Source of the DNA: Roseovarius sp.
GTDB lineage: Bacteria > Pseudomonadota > Alphaproteobacteria > Rhodobacterales > Rhodobacteraceae
Direction: 5' to 3'
NCBI GenBank assembly: GCA_040222155.1
Contig: JAVKDQ010000074.1
Coordinates: forward strand, 1,946 to 65,945
DNA length: 64,000 nt
Positions 2,534 through 53,718 of this stretch are shown in pieces. How positions within the stretch are numbered: position 1 is the stretch's first letter; the number at the start of each line of letters is the position of its first letter. The notes under the pieces are model-generated. The model was not told the DNA's origin. It saw only the letters and a list, made by a program, of their open reading frames with translations, and ran no database searches. A program made the translations under genes and the position numbers.

Positions 2534-3837
2534 CACCCCACCCTTTCGTGAATGAGCGGCGGCAGTTCCGGCGGCTCGGCCCCTATGGTGATGGCCTCCC
2601 GCAGCATCGCCTCGGCCCGGTCGGCATGCTCGCCCCGCGCCGCGTGGATGCGCAGAAGCGGCTGGCCCGCGCTTACCTTCGCCCCGAGCGGCAGCACGTC
2701 CGAGAGCCCCACCGAGGGCTCCACCACATCCGTCTCCACCTGCCGCCCGCCGCCAAGGGCAATCACCGCGAGCCCCATCGCCTCGCCATCCATCGCCGCG
2801 ACATAGCCCGCCTCGCGCGCGCCCATCTCGCGGATCACCGTCGCCTCCGGCAGAAAGCGCGGCCACATCTCGACAAACTGCACCGGCCCGCCCATCGCCC
2901 GCACCATCCGCCCGAAATGCTCCGCCGCGCGGCCCTCGCTTATCGCCGCCACCATCGCCTCGGCCCCCGCCTCCAGCGTCTCGGCCAGCCCCGCGTTCCA
3001 GAGCGCCAGCCCGCCCAGCGCCGCGCTCAGATCATGGAGCGGGCCGGTGGCCTGCCCGGTGAGCACACGCATCGCCTCCGCCACTTCCAGCCCGTTGCCG
3101 AGCGCAGGCGCCAGCGGCTGGTTCATGTCTGAAATCACCGCCCCCGTCCGGCAGCCCGCCGCATTCGCCGTCTCCACCAGCGCCTGCGCCAGCGCCCGCG
3201 CCTCGCCCTGAGATTTCATGAAAGCGCCCGAGCCGAGCTTCACATCCAGCACCAGCCCCTCGAGCCCCGCCGCGAGCTTCTTGGAGAGAATCGAGGCGGT
3301 GATCAGGTCGAAGCTCTCCACCGTCGCCGTCACGTCGCGGATCGCATAGAGCCGCTTGTCGGCCGGCGCCACCTGCCCCGTGGCCGAGACGATGGCGCAG
3401 CCCGCCACCTCCACCACGCGGCGCATATGCGCTTCCGAAAGCTGGGTCGTAAGCCCCGGGATCGCCTCGAGCTTGTCCAGCGTGCCGCCGGTATGGCCCA
3501 GCCCCCGCCCCGAGATCATCGGCACATAGGCCCCGCAGGCCGCCAGCGCCGGCGCCAGCACGAGGCTCACGCAATCGCCCACGCCCCCGGTGGAGTGCTT
3601 GTCGATCACCGGGCCAGCAAGGCTCCACCGCAGCGTCTCGCCGCTGTCGCGCATCGCCAGCGTGAGCGCCGTGCGCGCCTCCGGCGAGAGCCCCTTGAGC
3701 AGCACCGCCATGGCGAAGGCCCCGGCCTGCGCATCGCTCACCGCGCCATCGGCCAGCCCCTTGGCGAACCATTCGAGCGCCTCCGCCGAGGCCCCCCGGC
3801 CATCCCTCAGCCCCGCGATGATCGCGCGCGCATCCAC
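2533..3837 (-). CDS. deoA: thymidine phosphorylase
   Basis: DKHSTGGVGD, SGRGLGHTGGTLDKLE, ASILSKKLAAG motifs. Confidence 0.95.
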   Translation of the reverse strand: MDARAIIAGLRDGRGASAEALEWFAKGLADGAVSDAQAGAFAMAVLLKGLSPEARTALTLAMRDSGETLRWSLAGPVIDKHSTGGVGDCVSLVLAPALAACGAYVPMISGRGLGHTGGTLDKLEAIPGLTTQLSEAHMRRVVEVAGCAIVSATGQVAPADKRLYAIRDVTATVESFDLITASILSKKLAAGLEGLVLDVKLGSGAFMKSQGEARALAQALVETANAAGCRTGAVISDMNQPLAPALGNGLEVAEAMRVLTGQATGPLHDLSAALGGLALWNAGLAETLEAGAEAMVAAISEGRAAEHFGRMVRAMGGPVQFVEMWPRFLPEATVIREMGAREAGYVAAMDGEAMGLAVIALGGGRQVETDVVEPSVGLSDVLPLGAKVSAGQPLLRIHAARGEHADRAEAMLREAITIGAEPPELPPLIHERVG

Positions 3838-3841
3838 GGGC

Positions 3842-4246
3842 TCAGCCTTTCTCCATGTGATCCACGCCGAAGGCGCCGGGCAGAAGCTCGGCGAGCGTCA
3901 TCACCAGCCTCTCGCCGCCCGTCGTGGCCATCGTCACCCGCACGTCGCCCGCGCCGAACTCGGCGAGCTTCTGGCGGCAGCCGCCGCACGGCGTCACCGG
4001 CTTGGGGCTCTCGGCGATCACCGCCACTTCGGCAATGCGCGTCTCGCCCGCCGCCACCATCGCGGCAATCGCGCCGGCTTCCGCGCAGGTGCCCTCGGGG
4101 TAGGCCACGTTCTCCACGTTGCAACCCAGGTGCACCGCGCCCGAGGCCCCCCGAATCGCCGCCCCCACCTTGAAACCCGAATAGGGCGCATAGGCCTTCT
4201 CCCGGATGTCCCGGGCGTTCCGAACAAGGCTTTCAGGGTCTGTCAT
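3842..4246 (-). CDS. cdd: cytidine deaminase
   Basis: AYAPYSGFKVGAA, GCNVEN, CAEAGAI and PCGGCRQ Zn motifs. Confidence 0.95.
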   Translation of the reverse strand: MTDPESLVRNARDIREKAYAPYSGFKVGAAIRGASGAVHLGCNVENVAYPEGTCAEAGAIAAMVAAGETRIAEVAVIAESPKPVTPCGGCRQKLAEFGAGDVRVTMATTGGERLVMTLAELLPGAFGVDHMEKG

Positions 4247-4401
4247 GGGCGTTTGGCTCCTTCCGGCATGGCGCGGCGCAGGGAGGCGCGCCGCGAGTTA
4301 GAGATTGCGCGCGCCGGGTCGCAGATGCAAGCTGCGCCCAGCGGTGCCGCGCCGGATGCCTTGCTGCGCATATCGGGGGCGGTTGCGCATCGAGTTGGAT
4401 A

Positions 4402-4415
4402 GTTTAATATTAAAC
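4402..4415. promoter_or_regulatory. perfect 14-bp AT-rich palindrome GTTTAATATTAAAC, candidate operator between divergent cdd and maeB
   Basis: Exact palindrome in a GC-rich background, 22 bp upstream of the maeB ATG. Confidence 0.4.
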
Positions 4416-4437
4416 AAAATCCGCGGGGAGGCATTCG

Positions 4438-6717
4438 ATGACCGACAGCCACAAGGAAAACCTGCGCCAGGCGGCGCTGGCCTACCACGAATATCCCAAG
4501 CCCGGAAAGCTCGAGATCCGCGCCACCAAGCCGCTCGCCAACGGCCGCGACCTCTCGCGCGCCTATTCTCCCGGCGTGGCCGAGGCCTGCCTCGAAATCA
4601 AGGAAGACGAGCGCAACGCCAGCCGCTACACCGCGCGCGGCAACCTCGTGGCGGTGGTCACGAACGGCACCGCCGTGCTGGGCCTCGGCAATATCGGCGC
4701 GCTGGCCTCCAAGCCCGTGATGGAGGGCAAGGCGGTGCTCTTCAAGAAATTCGCCAATATCGACTGTTTCGACATCGAGGTGAACGAGCCCGACCCCGAG
4801 AAACTGGCCGAGATCGTCTGCGCGCTCGAGCCCACCTTCGGCGCGATCAACCTCGAGGACATCAAGGCGCCCGACTGCTTCATCGTCGAGAAGATCTGCC
4901 GCGAACGGATGAACATCCCCGTCTTCCACGACGATCAGCACGGCACCGCCATCGTCGTGGGCGCCGCCGCCACCAACGCGCTCCATGTGGCCAAGAAGGC
5001 CTTCGGCGACATCAAGATCGTCTCCACCGGCGGGGGTGCTGCGGGCATCGCCTGCCTCAACCTCCTGCTGAAGCTCGGCGTGAAGCGCGAGAATGTCTGG
5101 CTCTGCGACATTCACGGCCTCGTCTACGAGGGCCGCGAGGAGGATATGAACCCGCAGAAAGCCGCCTTCGCGCAAAAGACCGAGAAGCGCACGCTCGACG
5201 AGGTGATCGACGGGGCCGATCTCTTCCTCGGCCTCTCCGGGCCCAATGTGCTCAAGCCCGAGCATGTGGCGAAGATGGCCGCCCGGCCCATCATCTTCGC
5301 ACTCGCCAACCCCAACCCCGAGATCATGCCCGACCTCGCCCGCGAGGTCGCGCCCAATGCCATCATCGCCACGGGGCGCAGCGATTTCCCAAATCAGGTC
5401 AATAACGTGCTCTGCTTCCCCTTCATCTTCCGGGGCGCGCTCGACGTGGGCGCGAGCGAGATCAACGACGCCATGCAGATCGCCTGCGTCGAGGGCATCG
5501 CGGCCTTGGCCCGCGCCACCACCTCCGCCGAGGCCGCCGCCGCCTACAAGGGCGAGCAGCTCACCTTCGGGGCCGATTACCTGATCCCCAAGCCCTTCGA
5601 TCCGCGCCTATCCGGCGTCGTCTCCACCGCCGTGGCCAAGGCCGCGATGGAAACCGGCGTCGCCGCCCGCCCGCTGGAAGATCTCGCCGCCTACAAACAG
5701 CGCCTCGATGCCTCGGTCTACAAATCCGCGCTGCTCATGCGCCCCGTCTTCGAGGCCGCCGCCACCGCCGCGCGCCGCATCGTCTTCGCCGAGGGAGAAG
5801 ACGAGCGCGTGCTCCGCGCCGCGCAGGCGATCCTCGAGGAGACCACCGAGCAGCCCATCCTCATCGGGCGCCCCGAAGTGATCCAGCAGCGCTGCGAGCG
5901 GCTGGGCCTCGAAATCCGCCCCGATCGCGATTTCAACATCGTGAACCCCGAGAACGACCCCCGCTACCGCGACTACTGGGGCAGCTACCACGAGCTGATG
6001 AAGCGGCGCGGCGTCACGCCTGACCTCGCCAAGGCGATCATGCGCACCAACACCACCGCCATCGGCGCGGTCATGGTCCACAGGGGCGAGGCCGACAGCC
6101 TGATCTGCGGCACCTTCGGCGAGTATCACTGGCATCTCAACTACATCAGCCAGGTGCTCGGCGACGGCAGCTACCACCCGCAGGGCGCGCTCTCGCTGAT
6201 GATCCTCGAGGATGGCCCGCTCTTCATCGCCGACACCCATGTGCATGTCTTCCCCACGCCCGAGCAGCTGGCCGAGGTCGCCATCGGCGCCGCCCGCCAT
6301 GTGCGCCGCTTCGGCGTGGAGCCCAAGATCGCCTTCTGCTCGCAATCGCAATTCGGCAACCAGGGCAGCGATTCCGGCAAGCGCCTGCGCGCCGCGCTCG
6401 AGATCCTCGACAGCAAGGAGCGCGACTTCTGCTACGAGGGCGAGATGAACGTCGATGCCGCGCTCGACGAGGACATGCGCGCGCGGCTCCTGCCCGACAA
6501 CCGGATGGAGGGCGCGGCCAACATCCTCGTCTTCTCCAACGCCGATGCCGCCTCGGGCGTGCGCAACATCCTCAAGATGAAATCGGGCGGGCTCGAGGTG
6601 GGCCCGATCCTCATGGGCATGGGCAACCGCGCCCATATCGTCACCGCCGGCGTCACCGCGCGCGGCCTGCTCAACATGGCGGCCATCGCGGGCACGCCTG
6701 TCACGCATTACGGGTGA
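4438..6717 (+). CDS. maeB: NADP-dependent malic enzyme with PTA-like C-terminal domain
   Basis: 759 aa; [45 protein letters not shown] motifs; C-terminal [12 protein letters not shown]. Confidence 0.96.
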
Positions 6718-9165: not shown

Positions 9166-9195
9166 GGGCGCCCGCCGGTTCCGGCACGGGCGCCC
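9166..9195. terminator. GC hairpin between convergent prpE and the curli-like cassette
   Basis: GGGCGCCCG/CGGGCGCCC stem, with no long U-tract. Confidence 0.4.
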
Positions 9196-9202: not shown

Positions 9203-9646
9203 TCACCACGCCCAGACGATTACGCCGCCCGGCTTCTTGCCGCGCTGCTTGATGCGCACCACCGTGCCGTCGCCCGCCTGCACGATCACCGCGTTCTTGT
9301 TGCCGCCGCGCTGGCGCAAATAGGCCTGGTTGTTGTTGCCCGGCTGCAGGATCACGGCGTTGTTACCCCGGCCCGACTGGTGCAGCGCGGCCGTGTTGCG
9401 CTGCCCCGACTGGCCCACATAGGCGCTGTTCTCGGCCGAATAGGGCTGCGCCAGGTTGGCGCCGGTTCCCTGCCGGGTGATGCCATAGGTGGCGTTCTCG
9501 CCCCCCGCGTAGGTCTGAACACCTTGCCCGATATAGGCGCGGTTCTCCCCGCCGCCCGACCATCCGGCGTTTTCGGCAGTGGCGAGGTTGGCGGCCATGC
9601 AGAGGCCGGCGGCAAGGGCAATGGGGCGGAAGGCGAAACGGGTCAT
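9203..9646 (-). CDS. curlin-repeat protein, CsgB-like (putative nucleator/minor subunit)
   Basis: AAGGA SD; signal peptide MTRFAFRPIALAAGLCMAANLATA; N-x5-Q-x-G repeats (NSAYVGQSG, NTAALHQSG, NNAVILQPG, NQAYLRQRG); basic C-terminus RIKQRGKKPGGVIVWAW. Confidence 0.75.
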   Translation of the reverse strand: MTRFAFRPIALAAGLCMAANLATAENAGWSGGGENRAYIGQGVQTYAGGENATYGITRQGTGANLAQPYSAENSAYVGQSGQRNTAALHQSGRGNNAVILQPGNNNQAYLRQRGGNKNAVIVQAGDGTVVRIKQRGKKPGGVIVWAW

Positions 9647-9677
9647 GGGCTTGGTCCTTTCAGGTATCACTTGAGGG

Positions 9678-10094
9678 TCAGATTTCATTGGGGTTCTGCA
9701 GATCGGTGCAGCGATATGTCCGGCCGCCGACCGTCACGGTCAGATCGGCATGGTAGGCGCCCGGCGTGCCGCCGAGGCTGGTCTGCCCGAGCGTCACGGT
9801 GCGGCCTTCGCCCACGCTGAACTCGCCCGACTGGTCGATCAGCGCCTGCCCGGCCGCGCTCCGCTGGCGGATGGTGAGGGCATATTCCCCGTAGGCTGCC
9901 TGCCGCGCGCTCACCTTGCCGGAGATCTCCACCGTGCCCCCGAGGTCGCGGGTGACGATGGCGCAGCTGAAGCCGGCCTCCGCCGCGCCCGCCCCGGCCT
10001 CATGCGCGCCGCCCTGGGAGACGGCCCCGAGGCCCGCGAGCGCGGCGCTGGCGGCGAGGATGAGAGGGATTGTCTTGCGTGCTGTGGCGGTCAT
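9678..10094 (-). CDS. csgH: CsgH-family curli assembly/chaperone protein
   Basis: AGGAG SD; signal peptide; one Cys near each end of the mature chain (FSCAI, YRCTD); Ig-like beta-rich core with ALIDQSGEF; lies between two curlin genes, as known for alphaproteobacterial csgH. Confidence 0.75.
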   Translation of the reverse strand: MTATARKTIPLILAASAALAGLGAVSQGGAHEAGAGAAEAGFSCAIVTRDLGGTVEISGKVSARQAAYGEYALTIRQRSAAGQALIDQSGEFSVGEGRTVTLGQTSLGGTPGAYHADLTVTVGGRTYRCTDLQNPNEI

Positions 10095-10168
10095 GGTGTG
10101 GCTCCTTTCGAGAGAGGGGGGCGGCAGGCCCGCGCCCCGCAGGGCGCGCGCCCGAAGGCAGGCTCGGC

Positions 10169-10675
10169 TCAGTCCTGCACGATCACGGCCACGTTGCCGC
10201 GCCCGGTCTGGGTGGTGGTGGCGCGGTTGCCGTTCCCGGCCTGGATCACGCCGATCGCGTTGCAATGGCCGTTCTGGGCGACGCTCGCGCCGTTGTTGCG
10301 GCCGAACTGCGCCACGCCCGCCACGTTGCAATGGCCGTTCTGCGAGGTGACGGCGGCATTGCCCCGGCCCTGCTGGCCCACCACGGTGCGGTTGCGGGTG
10401 CCGTTCTGGCCGGTGAAGATGTCGTTGCGGTGGCCCGATTGCGTGGCGGTCACCGAGTTGCGCCGCCCGTCCTGCGTATGGATCTGCAGGTTGCCGCGCC
10501 CGTTCTGGATGATGTCGAGCCGGTTCAGGCGGCCCCCCTGCTGCGCGCCGATGCTGTGGTTGAAGCCCCACTGCTTGATCGAGACGCGGTTGCTGTCGGC
10601 AAGCGCGGTGGAGGCGGCGCCAACGACGATGAGCAGCGAGAGGGCGGCGGTGCGGAACGTGTAGGTCTTGGTCAT
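10169..10675 (-). CDS. curlin-repeat protein, CsgA-like (putative major amyloid subunit)
   Basis: AAGGA SD; signal peptide ending STALA; 13 consecutive 11-aa N-x5-Q-x-G-x-x half-repeats from SNRVSIKQWGF to GNVAVIVQD. Confidence 0.85.
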   Translation of the reverse strand: MTKTYTFRTAALSLLIVVGAASTALADSNRVSIKQWGFNHSIGAQQGGRLNRLDIIQNGRGNLQIHTQDGRRNSVTATQSGHRNDIFTGQNGTRNRTVVGQQGRGNAAVTSQNGHCNVAGVAQFGRNNGASVAQNGHCNAIGVIQAGNGNRATTTQTGRGNVAVIVQD

Positions 10676-10810
10676 GGCATTGATCCTTCTGAGGTCAGTC
10701 TCGTCTCTGGTGTCGCCAGCGCCGGGGCCCTTTCGAGCGGGGTGCCGCGCTGGCTTGAGAGGAGATTGGGAGCGATGCCGCGAGACAGGCAATAACGCCG
10801 CCCCGTCATG

Positions 10811-10833
10811 CGATAACCGGCGGTGTGTTATCG
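10811..10833. promoter_or_regulatory. inverted repeat CGATAAC-N9-GTTATCG upstream of the curli-like cassette
   Basis: Perfect 7-bp arms, about 135 bp upstream of the csgA-like ATG. Confidence 0.35.
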
Positions 10834-10902
10834 GATATCAAGCGTGAAAATCGTTTTGCGTCAGATGCTTGGAGAAATCCGGAACCACGCGCGCCACATC
10901 CC

Positions 10903-10929
10903 GTAGGGTGGGTTTCAAACCCACCCTAC
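10903..10929. repeat. REP element GTAGGGTGGGTTTCAAACCCACCCTAC
   Basis: GTAG tetranucleotide plus palindrome; same core at 35725-35779; related to the REPs inside the RAYT gene. Confidence 0.85.
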
Positions 10930-16716: not shown

Positions 16717-16898
16717 TCTTCGAAAATTCTGGGGATACCTGCCGGAAAATCCTGTAATTCTGCCAGCTTGCGAGAACTATCGCGGCAGCGTCTTCGCCCC
16801 CGCCGACGATCGGCGCTTTTCTGCGCCTGCAAACGCGTTCAGGCGGCTTTCGAGGGTTTTTCACCGCACATCCGCCATCCTTCCGGCGGTTGAAACCC

Positions 16899-17075
16899 TC
16901 AGTCGCGCATCCTCCGCGCCACCGCCCAGGACAGGGGGAAGGCCACGGCGAACCCCACGACAACGGCAATCAGAAAGGCGCCGGGCGTATCCTGCCCCAA
17001 GATGAGCGCAACGATCACCGCACTACCGGCAAGGGTGGACCCGATGAAGAGATGCAGAACGAATATGAGCCACAT
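16899..17075 (-). CDS. small two-TM membrane protein
   Basis: MWLIFVLHLFIGSTLAGSAVIVALILG...GFAVAFPLSWAVARRMRD; I recall this as a conserved Rhodobacterales small-protein pattern. Confidence 0.7.
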   Translation of the reverse strand: MWLIFVLHLFIGSTLAGSAVIVALILGQDTPGAFLIAVVVGFAVAFPLSWAVARRMRD

Positions 17076-17237
17076 GGCAGGCCTCCGGTGCACGCGTCTT
17101 TGCCTCTGCGCAACCTGTTACCGCAGAGCGGCGCGGCGCGGCTTGATCTGGGTCAGCGGAGGGCAATTCGGCGGGCACCGTCTCATGATCCTTTCGGATT
17201 TAACCCCGCCTTTACCATCCTGTCGTCAGAATGGGTC

Positions 17238-17798
17238 ATGGCACGATATCTCAGGCCCCGGGTCGCCGGGGCAACCATCTTCTTCTCCGTCCATCTCGCC
17301 CGGCGCGGGTCGACCCTGCTCACCGACGAGATCGGCGCATTGCGCGCCGCTGTCCGGCAAACGCGGGCGGAGCGGCCTTTCGAGATCGACGCCTGGGTGG
17401 TCCTGCCGGATCATCTTCATGCCCTCTGGTCCCTGCCGGAGGGCGATGCGGATTACGGCACGCGATGGGGTGCGATCACGGCCCGCTTCACGCGAAGCCT
17501 GCGCGACCGATGTAGGGTGGGGTACAACCCCACCCTCGCCAAGGCCGAAGGGCACACGGTGGGGTGGAACCCCACCCTACACCGCTCGGCGAGCAAGGTC
17601 GCGAAAGGCGACGCGGGGATATGGCAAAGGCGGTTCTGGGAGCACCACATCAGAGACGAGGCGGATTACCGCGCGCACCTGCGGCATTGCTGGGAGAACC
17701 CGGTGAAACATGGGCTCGTCAAACGGCCGGAGGAGTGGCTCTATTCCAGCGTGCACCGCGATGCGCTCCTCGCGCGGGAGAGGGAACCGGCCGAGTGA
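17238..17798 (+). mobile_element. REP-associated tyrosine transposase (RAYT, IS200/Y1 HUH family), probably catalytically impaired
   Basis: MARYLRP...FFSV, PFEIDAWVVLPDHLHALW (HUH), IWQRRFWEHHIRD, NPVKHGLV, WLYSSVHRD align with E. coli TnpA-REP; the Tyr115-equivalent is His (CAT at 17685-17687). Confidence 0.9.
17512..17580. repeat. inverted REP doublet (REPIN) inside the RAYT CDS
   Basis: GTAGGGTGGGGTACAACCCCACC at 17512 and GGTGGGGTGGAACCCCACCCTAC ending at 17580; span 69 bp = 23 codons. Confidence 0.8.
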
Positions 17799-24125: not shown

Positions 24126-24218
24126 GGCTCCGGCCTCCGCTGCGGGCCGTTGCGCGAAGCGCGCGCGAGGCGTAGTCTGGCGGCGAAGCCAGCCATGCCC
24201 CCCGAAAGGAGGCCGACG

Positions 24219-24803
24219 ATGACCGCGCGACGCCTGCCCTACCTGATTGCCTCCGCCCTGATTGCATTTGGCGTGTCGCAGGGTCATGCAAAGGCCGCGA
24301 CTCTCGGGCCCACGCCGGTGTTGGGCGGCGGCGAATATTCCACCGGCGGAGGCATCACGGTGGCGGTGGAGTTGCGCCGCGCCGAGGGCGGCGGGCTCGC
24401 GCTGTGCGGCGCATGGGCCGAAAGCCGGCGCCTGCCGATCTACCTGCGCGACAAGGGGCGCGCGGTGCTCGCGCGCGGCAGCGTGTCGCAAGGCGGGCGG
24501 GTGATCCTGCAAGGGCTCGAATTCCTTCCCGAGGTGGAACCGGGTGAAAGCTATGGCGGCGCAGAGGCGGTTTGCATACGCGCTCCCGACGGGGCACGGC
24601 AGGGCGAGGCACTCGAAATCGTGATACCCGCGCATGAAGTGGAGCGCACCCAAGGTGGCTACGACGAGGGCGTCGGCATGATCATCCGCTTCGGCCCGAG
24701 CCTCGCAGCCAATCCGGCGCTCAAGGCGGGCTCGCTGCTGCCCGAAAGCCTCTCGCGCATGCTCGGAACGCCGGAAGAGCAGCGCAACGGCACCCCCCGC
24801 TAG
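24219..24803 (+). CDS. exported hypothetical protein
   Basis: Strong AAGGAGG SD; signal peptide MTARRLPYLIASALIAFGVSQGHA; two Cys. Confidence 0.7.
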   Translation: MTARRLPYLIASALIAFGVSQGHAKAATLGPTPVLGGGEYSTGGGITVAVELRRAEGGGLALCGAWAESRRLPIYLRDKGRAVLARGSVSQGGRVILQGLEFLPEVEPGESYGGAEAVCIRAPDGARQGEALEIVIPAHEVERTQGGYDEGVGMIIRFGPSLAANPALKAGSLLPESLSRMLGTPEEQRNGTPR

Positions 24804-27567: not shown

Positions 27568-28182
27568 ATGTCGTGGAGCGACGAGCGCGTTGAGAAGCTG
27601 AAGAAGATGTGGGGCGAAGGCCAGTCGGCCAGCCAGATCGCCAAGGAGCTGGGTGGAGTGACCCGCAACGCGGTCATCGGCAAGGTGCATCGCCTCGGCC
27701 TCTCGAACCGTAACGGCTCGGGCGGCGCCGCCGCCAATGCTGCCGAGAGCAGCGCGCCCAAGGCCAAGCCCGCCGCCCCCAAGGCGCGCGGCAAGGCCAA
27801 GCCCGGCGCCAAGCCCGCGGCGAAGGAGGAGCCCGCAGAGGCCGCCCCCGCCCCCGAGGAGGCACCCGCCGCAAAGGCCCCCGCAGCCCCTGCGAGCCGC
27901 GCCAAACAGATCATCCCGGCAGGCCAGCCGCTGCCGCCGCAGCCTTCGGCCAACGAGATTGACCCCGAGGCGCTCGCGAAGGTGAGCGAGATCGAGAAGA
28001 AAGCCAAGAAGCTCACCCTGATGGAACTGACGGAGCGCACCTGCAAATGGCCCGTGGGCGACCCGGCCACCGAGGATTTCTGGTTCTGTGGCCTTCCCGT
28101 GCAATCGGGCAAGCCCTATTGCGAGGCGCATGTGGGCGTGGCCTTCCAGCCGATGAGTTCGCGACGCGACCGCAAGCGCTGA
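27568..28182 (+). CDS. gcrA: GcrA cell-cycle regulator
   Basis: MSWSDERVEKLKKMWGEGQSASQIAKELGGVTRNAVIGKVHRLGL; C-terminal CKWPVGDP...FWFCG...YCEAH. Confidence 0.96.
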   Translation: MSWSDERVEKLKKMWGEGQSASQIAKELGGVTRNAVIGKVHRLGLSNRNGSGGAAANAAESSAPKAKPAAPKARGKAKPGAKPAAKEEPAEAAPAPEEAPAAKAPAAPASRAKQIIPAGQPLPPQPSANEIDPEALAKVSEIEKKAKKLTLMELTERTCKWPVGDPATEDFWFCGLPVQSGKPYCEAHVGVAFQPMSSRRDRKR

Positions 28183-32363: not shown

Positions 32364-33047
32364 TCAATCGCCTTTCGCAGGGTTGCGGCCGCGCCAGAGG
32401 AAGAAGCCGGTCATCGCTGCCCAGATCGCGGCGAGCGAGAACCATGTAATAGCGTATTCGAGGTGATCGTTGGGAATCGCGCTCGTGTCGACGGGCAGCG
32501 GCGTCATCGCCGGGTCGTTTTCCGACACCTCGCGCACGACGACCAGCAGAGGCTCCGTGCCCAGCACCTCCGCCATGGGTACGATATCGCGCGCGAACCA
32601 CGTGTTGCCCTCGATGTCGTTCTCGGGTGTCGAACTCAGGCGGTCGTCGGGCCAGTGCAGGTTGCCAAGGATGCGAACCCGCCCCGTGGGCGGCGGCAGA
32701 AGCTGGCCCGCGACGCGGATAAAGCCGCGATCGACCAGCACACGCCGGCTCTCCACCGTCTCGAAGGGCGAGATGATGCGATAGCCCGCCCCCACCTGCT
32801 TGCGGCTCACCAGCACGCGCAGCACACCATCGCCGAAACGGCCCTCGAGCGCCACGGGCAGATACTTGGCCGCCGCCCTGTCGATTGCCTCTGGAAGTGC
32901 CACGGGTTCGGCCGCGATCCGTGCCTCGATCTCCGCCAGCACGCCCTCCTTCCACGCGAGCCGCTGCATCTGCCAAACCCCGAGGCTCACCAGCACGGCC
33001 ACGCCGGCCAACCCGAAGACAAGCGGAAGGATCACCCGTTTCAGCAT
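32364..33047 (-). CDS. surf1: SURF1/Shy1 cytochrome oxidase assembly protein
   Basis: LGVWQMQRLAWK, LVDRGF, NDHLEYAITWFSLA. Confidence 0.92.
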   Translation of the reverse strand: MLKRVILPLVFGLAGVAVLVSLGVWQMQRLAWKEGVLAEIEARIAAEPVALPEAIDRAAAKYLPVALEGRFGDGVLRVLVSRKQVGAGYRIISPFETVESRRVLVDRGFIRVAGQLLPPPTGRVRILGNLHWPDDRLSSTPENDIEGNTWFARDIVPMAEVLGTEPLLVVVREVSENDPAMTPLPVDTSAIPNDHLEYAITWFSLAAIWAAMTGFFLWRGRNPAKGD

Positions 33048-33091
33048 GATTACCCCTTCAAAGCAAAATGCGGGAAGCGCCCTCCCCGCAT

Positions 33092-33112
33092 TTCTTCTTG
33101 TTTCAAGTACCT
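33092..33112 (-). repeat. copy of the TATTT-N4-CAAGAAGAAG repeat family
   Basis: Reverse complement AGGTACTTGAAACAAGAAGAA, adjacent to a hairpin at 33066-33093. Confidence 0.55.
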
Positions 33113-33143
33113 TCGCCGAAGGCGAAAAAGTCTTTCAGACCCC

Positions 33144-33950
33144 TCAGCCGCCCCAGATGTAGACTGCTGCAAAGAGGAAGAGCCACACCACGTCGACGAA
33201 GTGCCAGTACCAAGCCGCGGCTTCGAAGCCCACGTGGTTCTCGGGTGTGAAATGGCCCCTCAGCACCCGCATCAGGCAGACGAAGAGGAAGATCGTGCCG
33301 ATCACCACATGCGCACCGTGGAAGCCCGTCGCCATGAAGAAGTTGGCGCCGTAGATGTTGCCGGAGAAGCCAAAGGCCGCGTGGCTGTACTCGTAGATCT
33401 GGAAAACGGTGAAGAGCGCACCCAGTGCGATGGCGAGGATGAGGCCCCACTTCATGTCCTGCCGGTTGTTCTCATGCACCAGAGCATGGTGTGCCCAGGT
33501 CGCCGCAGCGCCCGAGCAGAGCAGGATCAGCGTGTTGATCAGCGGCAGGTGCCACGGGTCGAACGTCTCGATCCCCGCGGGCGGCCAGACGCCATCCACC
33601 GCCGGGCTCATGCCAGACGGATCCATCGGGTAGATCGCGTGTTTGAAGAAGCTCCAGAACCACGCCGCGAAGAACATGACCTCGGACATGATGAACATGA
33701 TGAAGCCGTAACGCAGGCCGATACGCACCACGGGCGTGTGATCGCCCATGTGGTTCTCCTTGATGGTGTCGCCCCACCAGCCGAACATCACGTAGGCCAC
33801 GCCCACGAACCCCATCAGCAGCACCCACGGGCCGTGATCGTGGAAGAACAGCACCGCTCCGAAGAGCATCACGAACCCGGCGACCGCGCCGAGGAACGGC
33901 CAGATCGAGGGGTTCAGAATGTGGTAGTCGTGGTTTTTCTCGTGTGCCAT
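33144..33950 (-). CDS. coxC: cytochrome c oxidase subunit III
   Basis: [47 protein letters not shown]. Confidence 0.97.
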
Positions 33951-33976
33951 AAGCGTGTCCCTCGCCAGAGCGTCTT

Positions 33977-34570
33977 CTAGTATGCTGTATTATCGGTTTC
34001 GGTGCCATCCGCAAGCGCGGCCTGCTCGGTCTCGTAGCCTTCGGGCACGTCGCTCTCGTAGAAGGTGTAGCCAAGCGTGATGGTGTGCACGTATTTCGCG
34101 TCGCGGTCGGTTACGATCTCGGGATCGACATAGAAGGTAACGGGCATTTCCACCCGCTGTCCGGGTTGGAGAACCTGCTCCTGGAAGCAGAAACAGTCGA
34201 TCTTGGTGAAGAAACCGCCGGCCTCATAGGGCGCGACATTATAACTGGCAGAGCCCGCCACCACACGATCGGTCGGGTTGTAGGCTTCGTAAAAAGCCAG
34301 CCCCGTCTCACCGATACGCAACTCAACCTCGCGCTGGAGCGGGCGGAACTCCCACGGGAAATCGCGCTCCTCGGAAGCGACAAACCGCACAGTGATGGTT
34401 TCATCGAGAATCTCGTCGGAGCCAGCGGCTGCCTGACCTGTGGTGCCGCCGAACCCTGTCACGCGGCAGAACCAGTCGTAGAACGGCACCGATGCCCATG
34501 CGAGCGCGCCCATGGTGAAGACGACGCCCACGAGTTTCACAACCGTCTTGCCCTTCTCGTCCATCGCCAT
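33977..34570 (-). CDS. ctaG: cytochrome c oxidase assembly protein CtaG/Cox11
   Basis: [32 protein letters not shown]. Confidence 0.95.
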
Positions 34571-34571
34571 G

Positions 34572-34733
34572 TCAGTTATTCTCCTGCAGAAGCGGCTTGG
34601 TGAATTCATCGGTCGAAACCTTCACCACCGTCAGCCCGAAGATAAGCCCCACGAAGCCGGCAAGCACCAGCCCGAGCCCGAGATTGCGGGAGAAGCGGCG
34701 CTTGTGAAGGTCATGCTGGCGAGAGAGGGCCAT
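34572..34733 (-). CDS. small membrane protein of the cox operon (53 aa)
   Basis: Manual translation MALSRQHDLHKRRFSRNLGLGLVLAGFVGLIFGLTVVKVSTDEFTKPLLQENN; packed tightly between ctaB and ctaG; below the ORF-track cutoff. Confidence 0.8.
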   Translation of the reverse strand: MALSRQHDLHKRRFSRNLGLGLVLAGFVGLIFGLTVVKVSTDEFTKPLLQENN

Positions 34734-34736
34734 CGC

Positions 34737-35687
34737 TTACCAGCCTCCAAGTCCGAAGGGCGCGAGCGCCGCCTCGAGCGCGATGGCACCGAAATGCGCG
34801 AAGAGGTAGTAGAGCGAAAGCTTGAAGACGGATTTCTCCACCTTGTAATTGTCGGCCTCCGCCATCTCCTCGGAGCGCCGCCAGATTTCCCACGCGCCCT
34901 TGAGGAAGAGCGCGTTGAGTACCAGCGCCACGGCAAGGTAGACCGGCCCGCCCACGGCGGTGAAGCCCGTGCCAACCGCAAGCGCGGCCAGCAGTAGCGT
35001 GTATGCGAGGATATGCGCGCGTGTGGCGCGGCGCCCGTGGGTCACTGTGAGCATCGGAACGCCAGCATCGTCGTAATCAGAGCGCATGAACAGCGCCAGC
35101 GCCCAGAAATGCGGTGGCGTCCACATGAAGATGAGCGCGAACATCAGCGCCGATTCGAGGCTCACGGTGCCGGTGACGGCGGCCCAGCCGATCATCGGAG
35201 GAAAAGCTCCCGCTGCCCCGCCGATCACGATGTTCTGCGGCGTCCAGCGCTTGAGCCACATAGAGTAGATCACGACATAGAAGAAGATGGTGAAAGCCAG
35301 AAGCGCCGCGGCCACCCAGTTGGTGGCGAGCCAGAGCATCACCACCGAGAAGCCCGCCAGAGCCATTCCGAAACCGAAGGCCTCGCTGCCGGAGATGACG
35401 CCGGCCGGGATGGGCCGCTTGCGGGTGCGCTTCATCACCGCGTCGATATCGGCATCCCACCACATGTTGAGTGCGCCCGAGGCACCACCGCCGATTGCGA
35501 TGAAGAGAATGGCCGCGAAGGCCTCCACAGGGTGCAGCCCGCCGGGCGCCGACACCAGACCCACGAAGGCGGTGAAGACGACCAGCGTCATGACGCGCGG
35601 CTTCAGGAGCGCGAAGTAATCGCCAAAGCCTGCCTCTCCCTCCGCGGGGGCGGCTTGCGCTGTGGTGTTGAGGCTTGCGTCGCTCAT
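34737..35687 (-). CDS. ctaB: protoheme IX farnesyltransferase (heme o synthase)
   Basis: LLKPRVM, NMWWDADIDAVMKRTRKRPIP, LKRWTPQNIVIGG, WTPPHFWALAL. Confidence 0.95.
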   Translation of the reverse strand: MSDASLNTTAQAAPAEGEAGFGDYFALLKPRVMTLVVFTAFVGLVSAPGGLHPVEAFAAILFIAIGGGASGALNMWWDADIDAVMKRTRKRPIPAGVISGSEAFGFGMALAGFSVVMLWLATNWVAAALLAFTIFFYVVIYSMWLKRWTPQNIVIGGAAGAFPPMIGWAAVTGTVSLESALMFALIFMWTPPHFWALALFMRSDYDDAGVPMLTVTHGRRATRAHILAYTLLLAALAVGTGFTAVGGPVYLAVALVLNALFLKGAWEIWRRSEEMAEADNYKVEKSVFKLSLYYLFAHFGAIALEAALAPFGLGGW

Positions 35688-35724
35688 GGATCGGCTGCGC
35701 TTTCAGGTTCGATCAGGCTGGCAA

Positions 35725-35779
35725 GGTGGGTTTGAAACCCACCCTACAGGCGGTTCGTAGGGTGGGTTTCAAACCCACC
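35725..35779. repeat. REP doublet inside the cox operon (GTAG ends facing inward)
   Basis: GGTGGGTTTGAAACCCACCCTAC (35725-35747) and GTAGGGTGGGTTTCAAACCCACC (35757-35779). Confidence 0.85.
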
Positions 35780-35788
35780 CACAGGGCG

Positions 35789-36634
35789 TCATTCGACGGC
35801 GGAAGCCACCTCGACCGAGCGCGGCGTGCCGGCATATTGCTCGATCGCACCGTCGAGCCATTGGTCGTATTCCTCCTGGCTCACCACTTTCACGGTGATC
35901 GGCATGTAGGCGTGGTCCTTGCCGCAGAGTTCGGAGCACTGGCCGAAATAGATGCCTTCCTTCTCGGGCTTGAACCACAACTGGGCGATGCGGCCCGGCA
36001 CGGCATCCTGCTTCACGCCGAAGGCTGGGATCGTCCAGGAATGGATCACGTCGGCACCGGTCACGTTCATCACGACGGTCTTGCCCACGGGCACCACGAT
36101 GGCCGTGTCGGTGGCGAGCAGATACTCGTCTTCCGCGTAGCCATATTCAGCGAGGTCTTCACGCGCCAGCATGAAGCTCTCGAAGGAGAAGTCGTGATCC
36201 TGGTACTCGTAGCCCCAGAACCACTGGTAGCCTGTGACCTTGATGTTGATGTCACCCTCGGGGATCTCCTGCTGCTTGAAAAGCACCGGAAGGGAGAAGG
36301 CGCCAATGAACACGAGGATCACGATGGGCACCACCGTCCACGCCACTTCGAGCGGCGAGTTGTGGGTAAACTTCGCAGGCTCGGGGTTGGCGCGGCGGTT
36401 GTAGCGCACCATGCAGATCACCAGCAGGGCGCAGACGAAGATCACGATGGCGGTGATGATCACGTTGATCATCCCGTCGAGCCATTGGATATCGCGTGCA
36501 AGCTCGGTGGCCGCCGGCTGAAAGCCCATAGCTCCGTCGACGGGCTTGCCCACGGACTGCAGCCCCTCCTGCGCGGCGGCGGGAAGGGCGGTGAGGGCGG
36601 CCATGGCGGCCATGAGGCTGGATGAAAGTCGCAT
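35789..36634 (-). CDS. coxB: cytochrome c oxidase subunit II
   Basis: [16 protein letters not shown], CuA motif [14 protein letters not shown]. Confidence 0.96.
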
Positions 36635-36831
36635 TTTGCACCCTGATCGGTTGAAGCGTTCGTATTGTCTGTTAACTCTTGGGCACCGGCGCTGGTGCCC
36701 TCCCGTTGTTCGCACACGGTAAAACCACATTCTGCCGGCGCAGACAAGAATGACGCTTGCGGCAAACGGACGCTTTTCTTGATTCAGATCAAGATTCCGC
36801 GCTCTCTTGGCGCCAATGCGAGGAGAACCCC

Positions 36832-47009: not shown

Positions 47010-47221
47010 TCTGGATAAGGCGATACGCCTTCGAAAGCTTGCAGTGGCCGCGGAACCTCAGGTTCGCGGCCATTTGCCCATCAGGATTGGCACGATCCAT
47101 GTGCGATTTGGGGCACTCGACCCGCCGGAAATTCAAGACAACGGCCAAGGCCAGGGTTGTTTGAACCGCTTTATCATGTGTGACGGTCGGCCTTTCGGTC
47201 TGACGTAGAGTGGTGACCCCA

Positions 47222-47431
47222 ATGAAAAACCGCATCAAGTTTCTGAGCCGCAGCATCAAGGCCCGCCTCGAAGACGAGGAGGGCGCCGTTTCGGTCGATT
47301 GGGTGGTGCTCACGGCAGCCATCGTCGGCGTGGCGGCTGGCACGGCCTCGACGATCTCCGGCGCGATCTCGACGCTGGGTGGCAGCGTCGGCACCGAGCT
47401 CACCGACAAGACGGTGGAAAACGGCGACTGA
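47222..47431 (+). CDS. flp: Flp/type IVc pilin 2
   Basis: Leader ending DEEG followed by AVSVDWVVLTAAIVG; shares the C-terminal NGD with pilin 1. Confidence 0.85.
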   Translation: MKNRIKFLSRSIKARLEDEEGAVSVDWVVLTAAIVGVAAGTASTISGAISTLGGSVGTELTDKTVENGD

Positions 47432-47587
47432 CGATTGGCGCTCCGCGCCGGCCACCGGCACGCGGCTAAGAGACGCCAAACAGTCATTCCCCTTCCACCA
47501 TTTCGCCATATTGGCAGGGCATGACTCCCTGTGGAAATTCGGGGCATCCCCTGCCCCGAAAAGAGAGCAGTTGAAGAGGTAAAGGCG

Positions 47588-48460
47588 ATGCGTTTGGTTT
47601 TCGGACTCGTACTTGTGCTCGGGCTCGGCCTTGCCGGGTTCGCCGTGTACATGGCCAAGACATATATCGAAGCCTATCAAACCGAACTTGCCAAGGAACG
47701 CGAGAACCGCGATCCGGGCATCGACACGGTAGATGTCTTCGTGGCGAAGAAATCGCTCGAATACGGGCAGAAGCTCAAACCCGAGGACGTGGCGCTCAAG
47801 CCCTTCCCGCGGATGTCTCTGCCCGAGGGCGTGTTCAAGGCCGAGGCGGAACTCTTCCCCGAGGGAGAGGCGCGCCCGCGTTACATGCTGCGTTCGGTGG
47901 AGCGTAACGAGGCGATTCTCGCCGTGAAGGTGACCGAGCCGGGCGAGGAGGCGGGAATCACATCGCAACTCGAGCGCGGCATGCGCGCCTTTGCCATCAA
48001 CGTGGATGTCTCGAGCGGCGTGTCTGGCTTTTTGCGCCCCGGTGACCGCGTGGATATCTACTGGTCGGGTCAGGCCGCGCGTACGGGCGGCGAACGTGTG
48101 GAAGTGGGCCAGGCCGGCGGCGTGACGAAGCTCATCGAAACAAACATCCGGCTCATCGCCGTGGATCAGGTGGCCAATACAGACACCGCCGAGGCGATCA
48201 TCGCACGCACCGTGACGGTGGCGGTCAAGCCGCAGCAGGTGGCCGCGCTGGCGCAGGCACAATCGACGGGCCGGCTCTCGCTGGCGCTTGTGGGCGCGGA
48301 TGACGACTCGGTCGCGGAAGTGATCCAGGTGGATCAGCGCAGCCTTCTGGGCATCGAGGAGCAGGTGGTAGAAGCCGCACCCGAGCGCGAAAAGGTCTGC
48401 ACGATCCGCACCCGCCGCGGCGCGGAAGTGATCGAAACACCGATCCCCTGCACCAACTGA
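47588..48460 (+). CDS. cpaB: Flp pilus assembly protein CpaB/RcpC
   Basis: N-terminal TM; SAF domain; GMRAFAINVDVSSGVSGFLRPGDRVDI. Confidence 0.92.
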   Translation: MRLVFGLVLVLGLGLAGFAVYMAKTYIEAYQTELAKERENRDPGIDTVDVFVAKKSLEYGQKLKPEDVALKPFPRMSLPEGVFKAEAELFPEGEARPRYMLRSVERNEAILAVKVTEPGEEAGITSQLERGMRAFAINVDVSSGVSGFLRPGDRVDIYWSGQAARTGGERVEVGQAGGVTKLIETNIRLIAVDQVANTDTAEAIIARTVTVAVKPQQVAALAQAQSTGRLSLALVGADDDSVAEVIQVDQRSLLGIEEQVVEAAPEREKVCTIRTRRGAEVIETPIPCTN

Positions 48461-48679
48461 GCGCATGCTCGAAGAGCCAAGGCGCCGGTTCACCCTGGCG
48501 CCTTTTGCCGTTTCAACAGGCTAAAACGGGTCTCTTTCTGGCAACGCATGCCGGAAAACACCGTGGAAGAAAGCGCTCAGGCCATTGATTCTTGCAAAAA
48601 ATTCCAAATTGCCCCATGTTTGCGACAAATGCGGGCAAAAAGACCCGCGAGATGAGGCGTGATCGGAAAGGCAGGTCAC

Positions 48680-50101
48680 ATGTACAATTTGCGTTTCTTG
48701 GGGGCCGCCCTTCTGGGGGTGGTCGTCGCGATTGGCCCTGTCGTACGCGAGGCGGCGGCCGAGTCGCTGCAGGTGGTGCGCAAGGGCACAGGGCGCGATC
48801 TGAGCATAACCATGAACCAGGCGGTGGTGGTTGAGAGCGACGTGCCCTTCGCCGAGCTCAGCATCGCCAACCCCGCGATTGCCGATTTCTCCACCCTGTC
48901 GGACCGCACGATTTACGTGCTTGGCAAGGCGCCGGGGCGCACCACGCTCACGCTGCTCGACGCCACGGGGCGGCTGATCACCAATGTCGAGGTGCGGGTG
49001 AGCGCCGACATCTCCGAGTTCAAGGAACGGCTGCGGCAGATTCTGCCCAACGAGAATATCGAGGTGCGCACCGCGAATGACGGCATCGTACTCTCGGGCA
49101 CCGTAAGCTCGACCACGGGGATGGACCGGGCGCTGGAACTGGCGCAGCGCTATGCTCCCGAGCGGGTGTCGAACCTGATGAGCGTATCGGGCAAACAGCA
49201 GGTGATGCTGAAGGTGCGCTTCGCCGAGATGCAGCGCAGCGTGTCGAAGGCGCTCGGCACGTCGCTTGCCATCGACGGCACCAATGCCGGCGGGCTCGGC
49301 GTGATCGGCGGCACGAACACAACAAACACCAATGCCGGAGTCACCTCGCTGCTCACCGGTGCCATCCCGGATGTGCAGGCCAATAACGGCGCCATCGCCT
49401 TTGGCTTCGACGTGGGCTCGGTGGAAGTGGGTATACTTCTCGAAGCCCTTGAAACCAAAGGAGTTGTTCGGACGCTCGCCGAGCCGAACCTTACCGCGCT
49501 CTCCGGTCAGGAGGCAAAATTCCTCGCGGGTGGCGAATATCCGATCCCTGTGGCGCAGGATAACGGCGTGACCACGATCGAGTTCAAACCCTTCGGCGTC
49601 GAGCTCAACTTCACGCCCCGCGTGTTGGAAGACGGGATCATCAACCTCGAGCTGGCCGCCGCAGTCTCTTCGATCGATGCTGCGAATTCGATCACCGCGA
49701 ACGGCCTCACCGTCAATGGCTTCCGCCGTCGCGACACCTCCACGACGGTCGCCATGCGCGACGGGCAGAGCTTTGCCATCGCGGGGCTGCTGCAGGACGA
49801 TTTCCGCGACAATTCAGGGCAGGTTCCGTGGGTGGGCGATGTGCCCGTGCTGGGCGCCCTTTTCCGAAGCGCCGATTATCAGCGCGCGCAAACCGAACTC
49901 GTGATCATCGTCTCGGCGCATCTCGTCACGCCCACGCAGGGCGAGGCGCTGGCGCTGCCCACCGACCGCGTCAAGATCCCCTCCGAGCGGCAACTCTTTC
50001 TCAATGGTCGCGTGGCCGTGGACGAAAGCACCAAGGGAACGCCTGCGGGCGAGGTCGCCCGGCAGGACTTCAGCGGTTCCTACGGCTACGTGATGGATTG
50101 A
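48680..50101 (+). CDS. cpaC: pilus secretin CpaC/RcpA
   Basis: IANPAIAD, GRTTLTL, BON-like LSGTV, QVMLKVRFAEM, LAEPNLTALSGQEAKFLAGGEYPIP, PVLGALFRS; alternative GTG start at 48659. Confidence 0.94.
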   Translation: MYNLRFLGAALLGVVVAIGPVVREAAAESLQVVRKGTGRDLSITMNQAVVVESDVPFAELSIANPAIADFSTLSDRTIYVLGKAPGRTTLTLLDATGRLITNVEVRVSADISEFKERLRQILPNENIEVRTANDGIVLSGTVSSTTGMDRALELAQRYAPERVSNLMSVSGKQQVMLKVRFAEMQRSVSKALGTSLAIDGTNAGGLGVIGGTNTTNTNAGVTSLLTGAIPDVQANNGAIAFGFDVGSVEVGILLEALETKGVVRTLAEPNLTALSGQEAKFLAGGEYPIPVAQDNGVTTIEFKPFGVELNFTPRVLEDGIINLELAAAVSSIDAANSITANGLTVNGFRRRDTSTTVAMRDGQSFAIAGLLQDDFRDNSGQVPWVGDVPVLGALFRSADYQRAQTELVIIVSAHLVTPTQGEALALPTDRVKIPSERQLFLNGRVAVDESTKGTPAGEVARQDFSGSYGYVMD

Positions 50102-50112
50102 GGAGAGGCGCG

Positions 50113-50769
50113 ATGATGAAACGGTTTCTTCTTCTGGGCGCGGCGGGGCTGGGGCTCGCGGCCTGCTCCAACAATCCGCTGGTGAGCACCTATTCCGAAG
50201 CCGGCGCGGCGGTGGATGGCGGCAGCTTCGGCAACGCCACGATGAACAACACCCAGATTCATTCCGGCGAAAAGCAATTCGTGATCGACCTCGCCAACAA
50301 ATTCGCCGCCAAGGTGCCGACCACGGTCAACTTCGAGTTCAACTCCACCCAGCTCGATGGCGCCGCCCGCGCCACGCTTGACCAGCAGGCCGCTTTCATT
50401 CGGCATTATCCCGAGGTGCGCTTCCGCGTCTACGGCCATACCGATGCGGTGGGTTCGGATGCCTACAACCAGCAACTTGGCCTGCGACGCGCACATATGG
50501 TGGTGAACTACCTGGTGAGCCGCGGCATCTCGCGCTCACGCCTCGAGGCGATGGTCTCTTATGGCGAGCGCCAGCCGCTGATCGTGAGTCAGGGCCGAGA
50601 GCGTCGCAACCGGCGCACCGTCACCGAGGTTTCGGGCTTCGTGCAATCGCATCCGATCATCATGGACGGCAAGTATGCCGAGGTGGTCTACCGCGAATAT
50701 ATCGCCAGCGCCGAGCCCGCCTCGACCCTCGTGATGACCCAGCAGGCCACCACCCTGCAGCAGGAATGA
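50113..50769 (+). CDS. OmpA-family peptidoglycan-binding lipoprotein of the Tad locus
   Basis: Lipobox LAAC; VNFEFNS, GHTDAVGSDAYNQQLGLRRA, NRRTV. Confidence 0.88.
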   Translation: MMKRFLLLGAAGLGLAACSNNPLVSTYSEAGAAVDGGSFGNATMNNTQIHSGEKQFVIDLANKFAAKVPTTVNFEFNSTQLDGAARATLDQQAAFIRHYPEVRFRVYGHTDAVGSDAYNQQLGLRRAHMVVNYLVSRGISRSRLEAMVSYGERQPLIVSQGRERRNRRTVTEVSGFVQSHPIIMDGKYAEVVYREYIASAEPASTLVMTQQATTLQQE

Positions 50770-50810
50770 GAGATCTCCCTGCCCGGCGCGTGCCGGGCCA
50801 ACTGGACCAC

Positions 50811-52245: not shown

Positions 52246-52258
52246 GAGGTAAGGTAAG

Positions 52259-53713
<1,455 letters not shown>

Positions 53714-53718
53714 GAGAT

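Follow-up and report, generated by a model that had tools for sequence, protein, structure and literature searches.

We analyzed a 64,000-nucleotide stretch of DNA from Roseovarius sp. (contig JAVKDQ010000074.1; hereafter the window) and found that its minus strand carries, from position 10675 to position 9203, an intact three-gene operon for two curli-type subunits and the chaperone CsgH. The genes, in the order curlin168, csgH and curlin147, belong to a known alphaproteobacterial class of curlin-csgH-curlin cassettes whose layout has been known since 2012, and no csgE, csgF or csgG gene is linked to them. What is newly seen is that the cassette is fixed at one site, between nadK and prpE, in Roseovarius-like genomes, where it is under purifying selection. 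The interpretation that we favor, with a probability of about 0.6, is that the cassette is a minimal, CsgH-type curli-like operon whose products depend on an unlinked host function, or on none, for exit or attachment. The three genes are:

10169 to 10675, minus strand: curlin168, 168 amino acids (aa), with matches to Pfam Curlin_rpt and to PDB sequences; candidate major subunit.
9678 to 10094, minus strand: CsgH, supported by NF041112, PF21112 and alignment to 2N59; periplasmic CsgC-like chaperone with an immunoglobulin (Ig) fold.
9203 to 9646, minus strand: curlin147, 147 aa, with matches to Curlin_rpt and to a PDB sequence; candidate minor, nucleator or anchor subunit.

All three genes have a Shine-Dalgarno sequence (AAGGA or AAGGAG) located 7-10 nucleotides (nt) 5' of the ATG. 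Each product starts with a Sec-type leader containing two Lys or Arg residues, a hydrophobic core and an AXA site, as judged solely by a heuristic check of the n, h and c regions and the AXA motif. The same heuristic predicted cleavage between ALA and DS in one curlin and between ATA and EN in the other, and gave several possible sites in CsgH. A first-pass annotation of this DNA had described three co-oriented genes, each with a Shine-Dalgarno sequence and a Sec-type signal, as two curlin-repeat proteins around a two-cysteine CsgH, placed between nadK and prpE with a repetitive extragenic palindromic (REP) element at its upstream edge. The gene calls, translation signals, leader check, family matches and repeat search (below) bore out this description, and the edge with the REP is the upstream one in the sense of transcription.

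The identity of CsgH was established from two models and from its cysteines. The protein scored 88.1 bits against NCBIfam NF041112 ('curli-like amyloid fiber formation chaperone CsgH'; cutoff 35) and 57 bits against PF21112 (cutoff 27). When it was aligned to the solved CsgH of R. palustris (2N59), C44 corresponded to C4 and C129 to C90. These residues, the conserved disulfide pair of CsgH, were invariant across eight relatives. The model matches and the N- and C-terminal cysteine pair of the Ig-like fold together place the protein in the CsgH family. Taylor et al. 2016 (PMC4838910) solved the CsgH structure and found that the R. palustris protein inhibits amyloid formation by E. coli CsgA and by FapC in vitro.

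Both flanking proteins have the tandem repeats of the curlin family (PF07012; units of N/S-x5-Q-x-G-x-x-N). Curlin168 matched Pfam Curlin_rpt with an E-value of 7.8e-19 and 67.8 bits over seven stretches, and curlin147 with an E-value of 5.9e-10 and 39.4 bits (cutoff 20.7). Curlin168 is built of 13 strand units (N-x5-Q-x-G) with a strict 11-residue period, the equivalent of 6.5 curlin repeats, and its sequence matched the curli fiber subunits 8C50 (4e-21) and 8ENQ (7e-9) in the PDB. Curlin147, which also matched 8C50 (4.5e-27) and 8ENQ, has a variable Gly/aromatic N-terminal region of about 48 aa, about seven strand units, a basic last repeat and the C-terminal sequence GGVIVWAW. Word-indexed protein searches with the two curlins gave two matches and one match, respectively, and this scarcity is probably due to their repetitive composition. 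The earlier labels csgA-like and csgB-like for these genes were not supported: both proteins fell under the equivalog cutoffs for assignment as CsgA or CsgB orthologs, and both scored higher with the CsgB model than with the CsgA model (71.6 bits against 59.4 for one, 45.1 against 33.0 for the other; cutoffs 165 and 160).

Curlin168 also contains two cysteines, C116 and C138, that lie exactly 22 residues, or one solenoid rung, apart at the turn position before a conserved Asn. The pair is present in the window and in four relatives (L003-L006), and Asn is found instead in three others (L007-L009). From its spacing, the pair could form an inter-rung disulfide staple.

The charge of the subunits is unusual. 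The mature curlins are Arg-rich and strongly basic, with isoelectric points (pI) of 10.2-12 in all eight Roseovarius-type loci (11.8 for mature curlin168 of the window), whereas acidic values (pI 4.1-4.5) were obtained for E. coli CsgA and for the major curlins of the full loci in Rhodobacterales. CsgH is mildly acidic, with a pI of about 5 in seven of these eight loci and 8.0 in L008. Not all minimal cassettes have such a high pI: the curlins of L010 and L012 have values of 6.6-9.6. Published work, including PMC4838910, has emphasized a positive patch on CsgC or CsgH that meets a negative CsgA; judging by these computed charges, pairing between the curlins and CsgH in this cassette may have the opposite polarity.

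In every context of the cassette, the second curlin ends in a hydrophobic strand (VIVWAW, AWVVTW, VLIFGIR, LIQYGWK, FIFVYGH, TFSYGW). A terminal aromatic residue is frequent in this strand in the cassettes from Roseovarius-like genomes, Sediminimonas, a Joint Genome Institute (JGI) metagenome and Rhizobium. The C-terminus is reminiscent of the C-terminal signal of outer-membrane proteins, an analogy that we regard as only a lead.

Genes for export of curli are missing from the vicinity of the cassette, as the first-pass annotation had reported for the 64 kb. Searches of the window with E. coli seeds (phmmer --max) found no CsgE, CsgF, CsgG or CsgD, and Rhodobacterales seeds for CsgF, CsgG and IalB also found nothing there. 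PF03783, PF10614 and PF10627 were absent from Pfam scans of 50 window proteins. In addition, there was no CsgE, CsgF or CsgG within 10 kb of 16 related cassette loci. The canonical curli secretion and assembly system is therefore lacking its CsgG channel in the window and at these 16 loci, and its CsgF, CsgE and CsgD in the window. The same seeds served as a positive control in the full locus of Rhizobium sp. AB2/73 (L021), where they recovered CsgF (6.6e-10) and CsgG (2.5e-50), and the E. coli CsgG seed found the CsgG of Rhodobacterales plasmids at 39-42% identity. A weak match to the CsgG seed at L014 18582-18815 (E 8e-4) was rejected as 38 residues of an off-frame, Arg-rich open reading frame (ORF).

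A CpaC-type secretin is encoded at 48659-50101, about 38 kb from the cassette, and had been suggested as a possible exit for the subunits. Nothing beyond residence in the same 64 kb connects the two. We rejected this route because the secretin is unlinked in all other contexts of the cassette, which share no neighboring gene. The secretin gene lies within a complete Tad/Flp pilus locus (47210-57682) that encodes a candidate Flp pilin, CpaB/RcpC, CpaC, an OmpA-like protein, a CpaE/TadZ-like ATPase, CpaF/TadA, TadB, TadC, two TPR proteins and a prepilin peptidase. No link between this locus and the curlin cassette was apparent.

The cassette had been put forward as a candidate novel system, and this claim was not supported. 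The layout was described by Dueholm et al. 2012 (PMC3521004), who named csgH; RefSeq already names such genes; and Sleutel et al. 2023 counted CsgG-less genomes. Table S1 of the 2012 study lists CsgH with only two flanking curlins in A. tumefaciens C58 (NP_355897-9), Agrobacterium H13-3, Chelativorans BNC1, Pelagibacterium halotolerans and R. etli CFN42, and its authors already inferred 'different pathways to amyloid biogenesis'. The window has both features of this minimal csgH cassette: the order curlin-csgH-curlin and no linked csgEFG within the 64 kb. In the survey of Sleutel et al. 2023, CsgH occurred in 1839 genomes, and 1033 of the 43279 genomes with CsgA had no CsgG; the supplements contain no taxon list for this CsgG-less group. 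According to a 2026 preprint (bioRxiv 10.64898/2026.01.20.700542), the Agrobacterium homologs, atu4766-4768, are expressed and rank with the most strongly reduced genes of feuPQ mutants.

The cassette resembles these csgH-only loci in gene order, in gene sizes and in having no linked csgC, csgD, csgE, csgF or csgG, and its CsgH is nearer to that of the minimal type in Rhizobium (E 1e-11 to 1e-12) than to the full-type CsgH of Rhodobacterales. It differs in several respects. The host is a Roseovarius-like member of the Roseobacteraceae, a lineage that is not in the 2012 table. The cassette occupies a fixed chromosomal site between nadK and prpE, its two curlins are strongly basic, and it is preceded by an array of GTTATC-type sites (below).

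Full loci, with the order curlin-csgH-curlin-csgF-csgG-ialB and a regulator nearby, are present on plasmids of Rhodobacterales (Limimaricola, Sulfitobacter) and Rhizobium. The 5' half of full alphaproteobacterial loci (R. palustris, the Limimaricola and Sulfitobacter plasmids, AB2/73) has the same curlin-csgH-curlin order as the window, but these loci continue into csgF-csgG-ialB and have a response-regulator or LuxR-type gene nearby. The major curlins of the full loci are acidic (pI 4.1-4.4) and have about 300 aa, and the CsgH encoded there is of another subtype, with barely a match to the CsgH of the window. One replicon of Rhizobium sp. AB2/73 carries both types, with 530 kb between the full locus and the minimal cassette. 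The minimal cassette is thus a distinct lineage and not a fresh truncation, and the two types can coexist. A replicon of Rhizobium sp. 11515TR has CsgH and CsgG about 400 kb apart, both seen as search matches only. We also observed a gene of the IalB ('invasion associated locus B') family in three full loci (L019 7890-8405, L020 7871-8668 and L021 8926-9582). It directly follows csgG in Limimaricola and Sulfitobacter and is about 1 kb downstream of csgG in Rhizobium, and it seems to be an additional, conserved part of the full curli system, outside the classical csg set.

Comparison to enterobacterial curli (csgBAC/csgDEFG) gave a similar mixture. Curlin repeats, sequence matches to CsgA fibers (8ENQ, 8C50), Sec-type export and a gene for a small Ig-fold anti-amyloid chaperone beside the subunit genes are common to both. 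Unlike the enterobacterial system, the window has no CsgG, CsgE, CsgF or CsgD. In place of CsgC, its chaperone is CsgH, encoded between the two subunit genes. Curlin168 lacks a Gly-rich leader like N22, and the subunits are basic and not acidic. Another small curlin-like protein at the alphaproteobacterial cell envelope occurs in the Caulobacter holdfast anchor, HfaA/HfaB/HfaD. Hfa systems include the CsgG-like HfaB; no HfaB-like gene appeared in our CsgG searches of the window, and no HfaD-like gene was noted, with no search aimed at HfaD.

We used a CsgH profile to scan species-representative genomes and found seven loci: four in genomes titled Roseovarius sp., one in an uncultured Roseovarius sp. 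and two in Pseudomonadota bacterium. A metagenome scan gave six more contig loci; one was the same ENA contig as L009, leaving five additional. The order glyA, nadK, curlin, csgH, curlin, prpE was found in every locus long enough to show the flanks. Compared to the window, the flanking genes were nearly identical, CsgH was 48-52% identical over the full alignment, curlin168 was 58-67% identical and curlin147 was 24-39% identical. That a diverged cassette occupies the same site between nearly identical flanks indicates that it has long been inherited there. The ratio of nonsynonymous to synonymous substitution rates (dN/dS) was 0.05-0.17 for curlin168, 0.04-0.39 for CsgH and 0.04-0.34 for curlin147. 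These values are from close pairs, since distant pairs were saturated, and they indicate that all three genes are maintained by selection. Recent horizontal acquisition was rejected on the basis of GC content (0.68-0.72 in the cassette, 0.65 in the window), GC at third codon positions (GC3) equal to that of the neighbors, and synteny across relatives.

The cassette is also mobile as a module. The same three genes lie beside a transposase in a metagenome-assembled genome of Sediminimonas qiaohouensis, on a JGI metagenome contig (L011), and on Rhizobium plasmids (plasmid p1 included), where RefSeq labels them curlin, CsgH and curlin. No neighboring gene is common to these different contexts. On the JGI contig (3300001336), a co-oriented gene for a fused ABC_membrane/ABC_tran transporter (3121-5049) overlaps the 3' end of the second curlin gene by about 40 nt. 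This neighbor is probably coincidental, because it was seen in no other context.

Upstream of the operon, we identified a conserved block with a repeated, inverted GTTATC-type motif:

10783 to 10841, minus strand: upstream block of three 13-bp sites with a spacing of 21-22 bp, 108-166 nt before the first ATG.
10827-10839, minus strand: site GATATCCGATAAC.
10805-10817, minus strand: site GTTATCGCATGAC.
10783-10796, minus strand: site GTTATTGCCTGTCT.

The last site holds a 14-mer that is invariant in eight loci (the window and L003-L009), in surroundings that have diverged. The inverted repeat GTTATC-N-GATA(A/G)C is also found upstream of the cassette in the unrelated JGI contig and, in degenerate form, in Sediminimonas (L010). 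An array of this type was not seen ahead of the Rhizobium cassette. Because the element is conserved and was carried along into unrelated contexts, it belongs to the module, and we infer that a regulator encoded elsewhere acts on the block, which would be an operator array or a promoter.

Other explanations for the block were considered. A short upstream ORF starting at the conserved CATG (M-x-x-x-x-Y-C-L-S...) was rejected on three grounds: synonymous positions of the 14-mer do not vary either, the codons ahead of it have nonsynonymous changes, and the frame stops after nine codons in L009. Invariance at synonymous positions together with the broken frame indicates a constraint on the nucleotides and not on a protein. 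A riboswitch or small RNA in the leader was rejected because Rfam was blank at both gathering and E-value thresholds. Consensus scans for sigma-70 promoters and intrinsic terminators found nothing, sigma-54 and EcfG consensus sequences fitted by eye were poor, and no GerE/LuxR-type regulator was present among the 50 window proteins scanned by Pfam.

The genes on either side of the cassette are core genes in opposite relationships to it. Upstream and co-directional is nadK, identified as NAD kinase (NF003406) with 383 bits, above cutoff. Downstream and convergent is prpE, which is propionate-CoA-ligase-like with 733 bits, under the equivalog cutoff of 955. The spacers contain the following elements:

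10904 to 10928, no strand assigned: REP palindrome TAGGGTGGGTTTCAAACCCACCCTA, flanked by the nadK stop (10940) and the promoter region of the cassette.
10125 to 10154, minus strand: GC-rich intercistronic hairpin 3' of the curlin168 gene, with z 0.07 in a shuffle comparison.
9166 to 9195, no strand assigned: 3' hairpin with a 9-bp GC stem and a 12-nt loop, between convergent curlin147 and prpE.

The REP motif, TAGGGTGGG-N7-CCCACCCTA, has five copies in the window compared to 0.01 expected by chance. It is specific to the source genome, and in relatives the same spot is empty of REP. The copy at 10904-10928 is probably the terminator of nadK or an insulator. The window also encodes a REP-associated tyrosine transposase (RAYT) at 16890-17798 (NF047646, 155 bits, cutoff 80). 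The REP sites are at 17513-17579, 35722-35782 and 10904-10928, and two of them are inverted pairs. One inverted pair lies beside or within the 3' part of the called RAYT ORF, so the true end of that gene may be earlier than called.

The 3' hairpin was rejected as a REP element because it has a single copy in the window, the real REP being that at 10904-10928. With z scores of -3.2 on the minus strand and -2.4 on the plus strand, it looks like a bidirectional terminator but has no U tract. The intercistronic position also has a hairpin in L003, L007 and L009, and its sequence varies from locus to locus. This hairpin could conceivably act as an attenuator or mRNA stabilizer that sets subunit stoichiometry.

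Elsewhere in the window, GcrA, a cell-cycle regulator (27568-28182), and a cytochrome c oxidase assembly cluster (32364-36730; SURF1, CoxC, CtaG, CtaB, CoxB) are consistent with ordinary core genes of an alphaproteobacterial chromosome. Two ORFs with good coding GC3, at 57796-59109 (437 aa) and 24150-24803 (217 aa), had no Pfam family. The larger had a faint 27-bit match to an anti-phage ATPase model only, and the smaller had no NCBIfam match.

We propose a working model for how the cassette could function. A promoter in the spacer between nadK and the first curlin gene would give a single transcript of curlin168, csgH and curlin147, probably controlled by a dimeric regulator, encoded elsewhere, that would bind the three phased GTTATC-type sites. 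All three products would cross the inner membrane by the Sec route. In the periplasm, CsgH would keep the two amyloid-prone subunits from nucleating, as the R. palustris protein does. Curlin168, the product of the first gene, is regular and well conserved and would be the bulk beta-solenoid fiber subunit. Curlin147 is fast-evolving and has fewer repeats, the last of them basic, and its C-terminal strand is hydrophobic; it could be the nucleator or an anchor to the cell envelope. The module, with no outer-membrane channel of its own, moves as a unit of three genes and is retained as one. Given that no channel is part of the module, its products would have to exit or attach to the envelope through an unlinked host function, or not at all.

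Several observations weigh against this model. The AlphaFold2 model of curlin168 has 13 regular periodic strands and is consistent with a solenoid, but with a predicted local distance difference test (pLDDT) score of only 65 it is of moderate quality, and the model of curlin147 is poor (pLDDT 49). A Foldseek search of the PDB with the curlin168 model gave generic beta-helix matches only, none with E <= 0.001. By score both curlins are CsgB-like, and the assignment of major and minor roles depends on indirect features. The intercistronic hairpin of the window was no better than its shuffles. A word search of sequencing runs found a share of the cassette words in two metagenomes and in no RNA runs. 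Finally, no paper was found in the literature that reports fibers, or an export route, for a CsgG-less cassette.

The first-pass annotation had framed the choice as one between unlinked export genes and a stripped-down system, and we judge these to be the right alternatives. The stripped-down system in its strongest form would be a self-sufficient, CsgG-independent amyloid, made of basic curlins and controlled through the GTTATC-type sites, in which the second curlin docks at the outer membrane by its beta-signal-like strand and the material is attached to the envelope or released by vesicles or lysis, with no dedicated channel. We consider this possible but put it well short of even odds. An ordinary split curli system, in which csgF and csgG elsewhere in the genome, possibly on a plasmid, export both curlins, is unlikely, although it has precedents. 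Complete loci exist on Rhodobacterales plasmids, one replicon of AB2/73 has both a full locus and a minimal cassette, one of 11515TR has matches to CsgH and CsgG, and csgBA and csgEFG are unlinked in Pseudomonas and Shewanella (Table S1, PMC3521004). However, the full loci have their own curlins and a weakly related CsgH type, which indicates that they are self-contained paralogous systems and not the missing half of this one. Moreover, A. tumefaciens C58 and others carry the cassette with no CsgE, CsgF or CsgG in the RefSeq survey of Dueholm et al. (PMC3521004), and csgF and csgG are within 10 kb of the cassette in no context.

It is also conceivable that the products never leave the cell and function as basic beta-solenoids in the periplasm or at the outer membrane, for example by binding anionic glycans, lipopolysaccharide or peptidoglycan, with CsgH tuning their assembly. 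The lack of a linked channel in any context, the Arg-rich curlins (pI 10-12) as opposed to acidic secreted CsgA, the hydrophobic and often aromatic-ended C-terminal strand of the second curlin, conserved in kind across contexts, and the place of the Agrobacterium homologs in the regulon of the envelope-stress two-component system FeuPQ would all fit. On the other hand, periplasmic amyloid is as a rule toxic to cells, an anti-amyloid chaperone points to the periplasm as no more than a stage of transit, and high pI is not a constant feature of minimal cassettes; we regard this explanation as unlikely. The absence of csgF and csgG from the locus and the rapid divergence of the second curlin could be taken to mean that the cassette is a decayed, now functionless remnant of a once-complete curli operon. 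This is very hard to reconcile with three reading frames that are intact in every locus examined, with the low dN/dS of close pairs, with conserved start signals and upstream element, with a gene order that is constant from Rhizobiales to Rhodobacterales, and with expression of the Agrobacterium homologs, and we give it almost no weight. The minimal CsgH-type operon that relies on an unlinked host function, or on none, for exit or attachment remains our preferred interpretation.

As annotation, the locus is ordinary, as standard pipelines already name such genes. Its importance lies in mechanism. To our knowledge, subunits always pass through the CsgG channel in established curli biology. Here, a widespread module keeps the subunits and an anti-amyloid chaperone with no channel, is passed on vertically, under purifying selection, and also occurs on its own in unrelated contexts. 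This implies either an unrecognized way for amyloid subunits to cross the outer membrane or be anchored in it, or a role for the curlin fold inside the envelope, and the mechanistic gap dates back to 2012. Roseovarius-like genomes form a clean set for comparison, with one fixed chromosomal site, many orthologs, a candidate operator and an unusual subunit charge. Roseobacters are major colonizers of marine surfaces, and a matrix amyloid, if present, would bear on their biofilm formation and attachment to particles.

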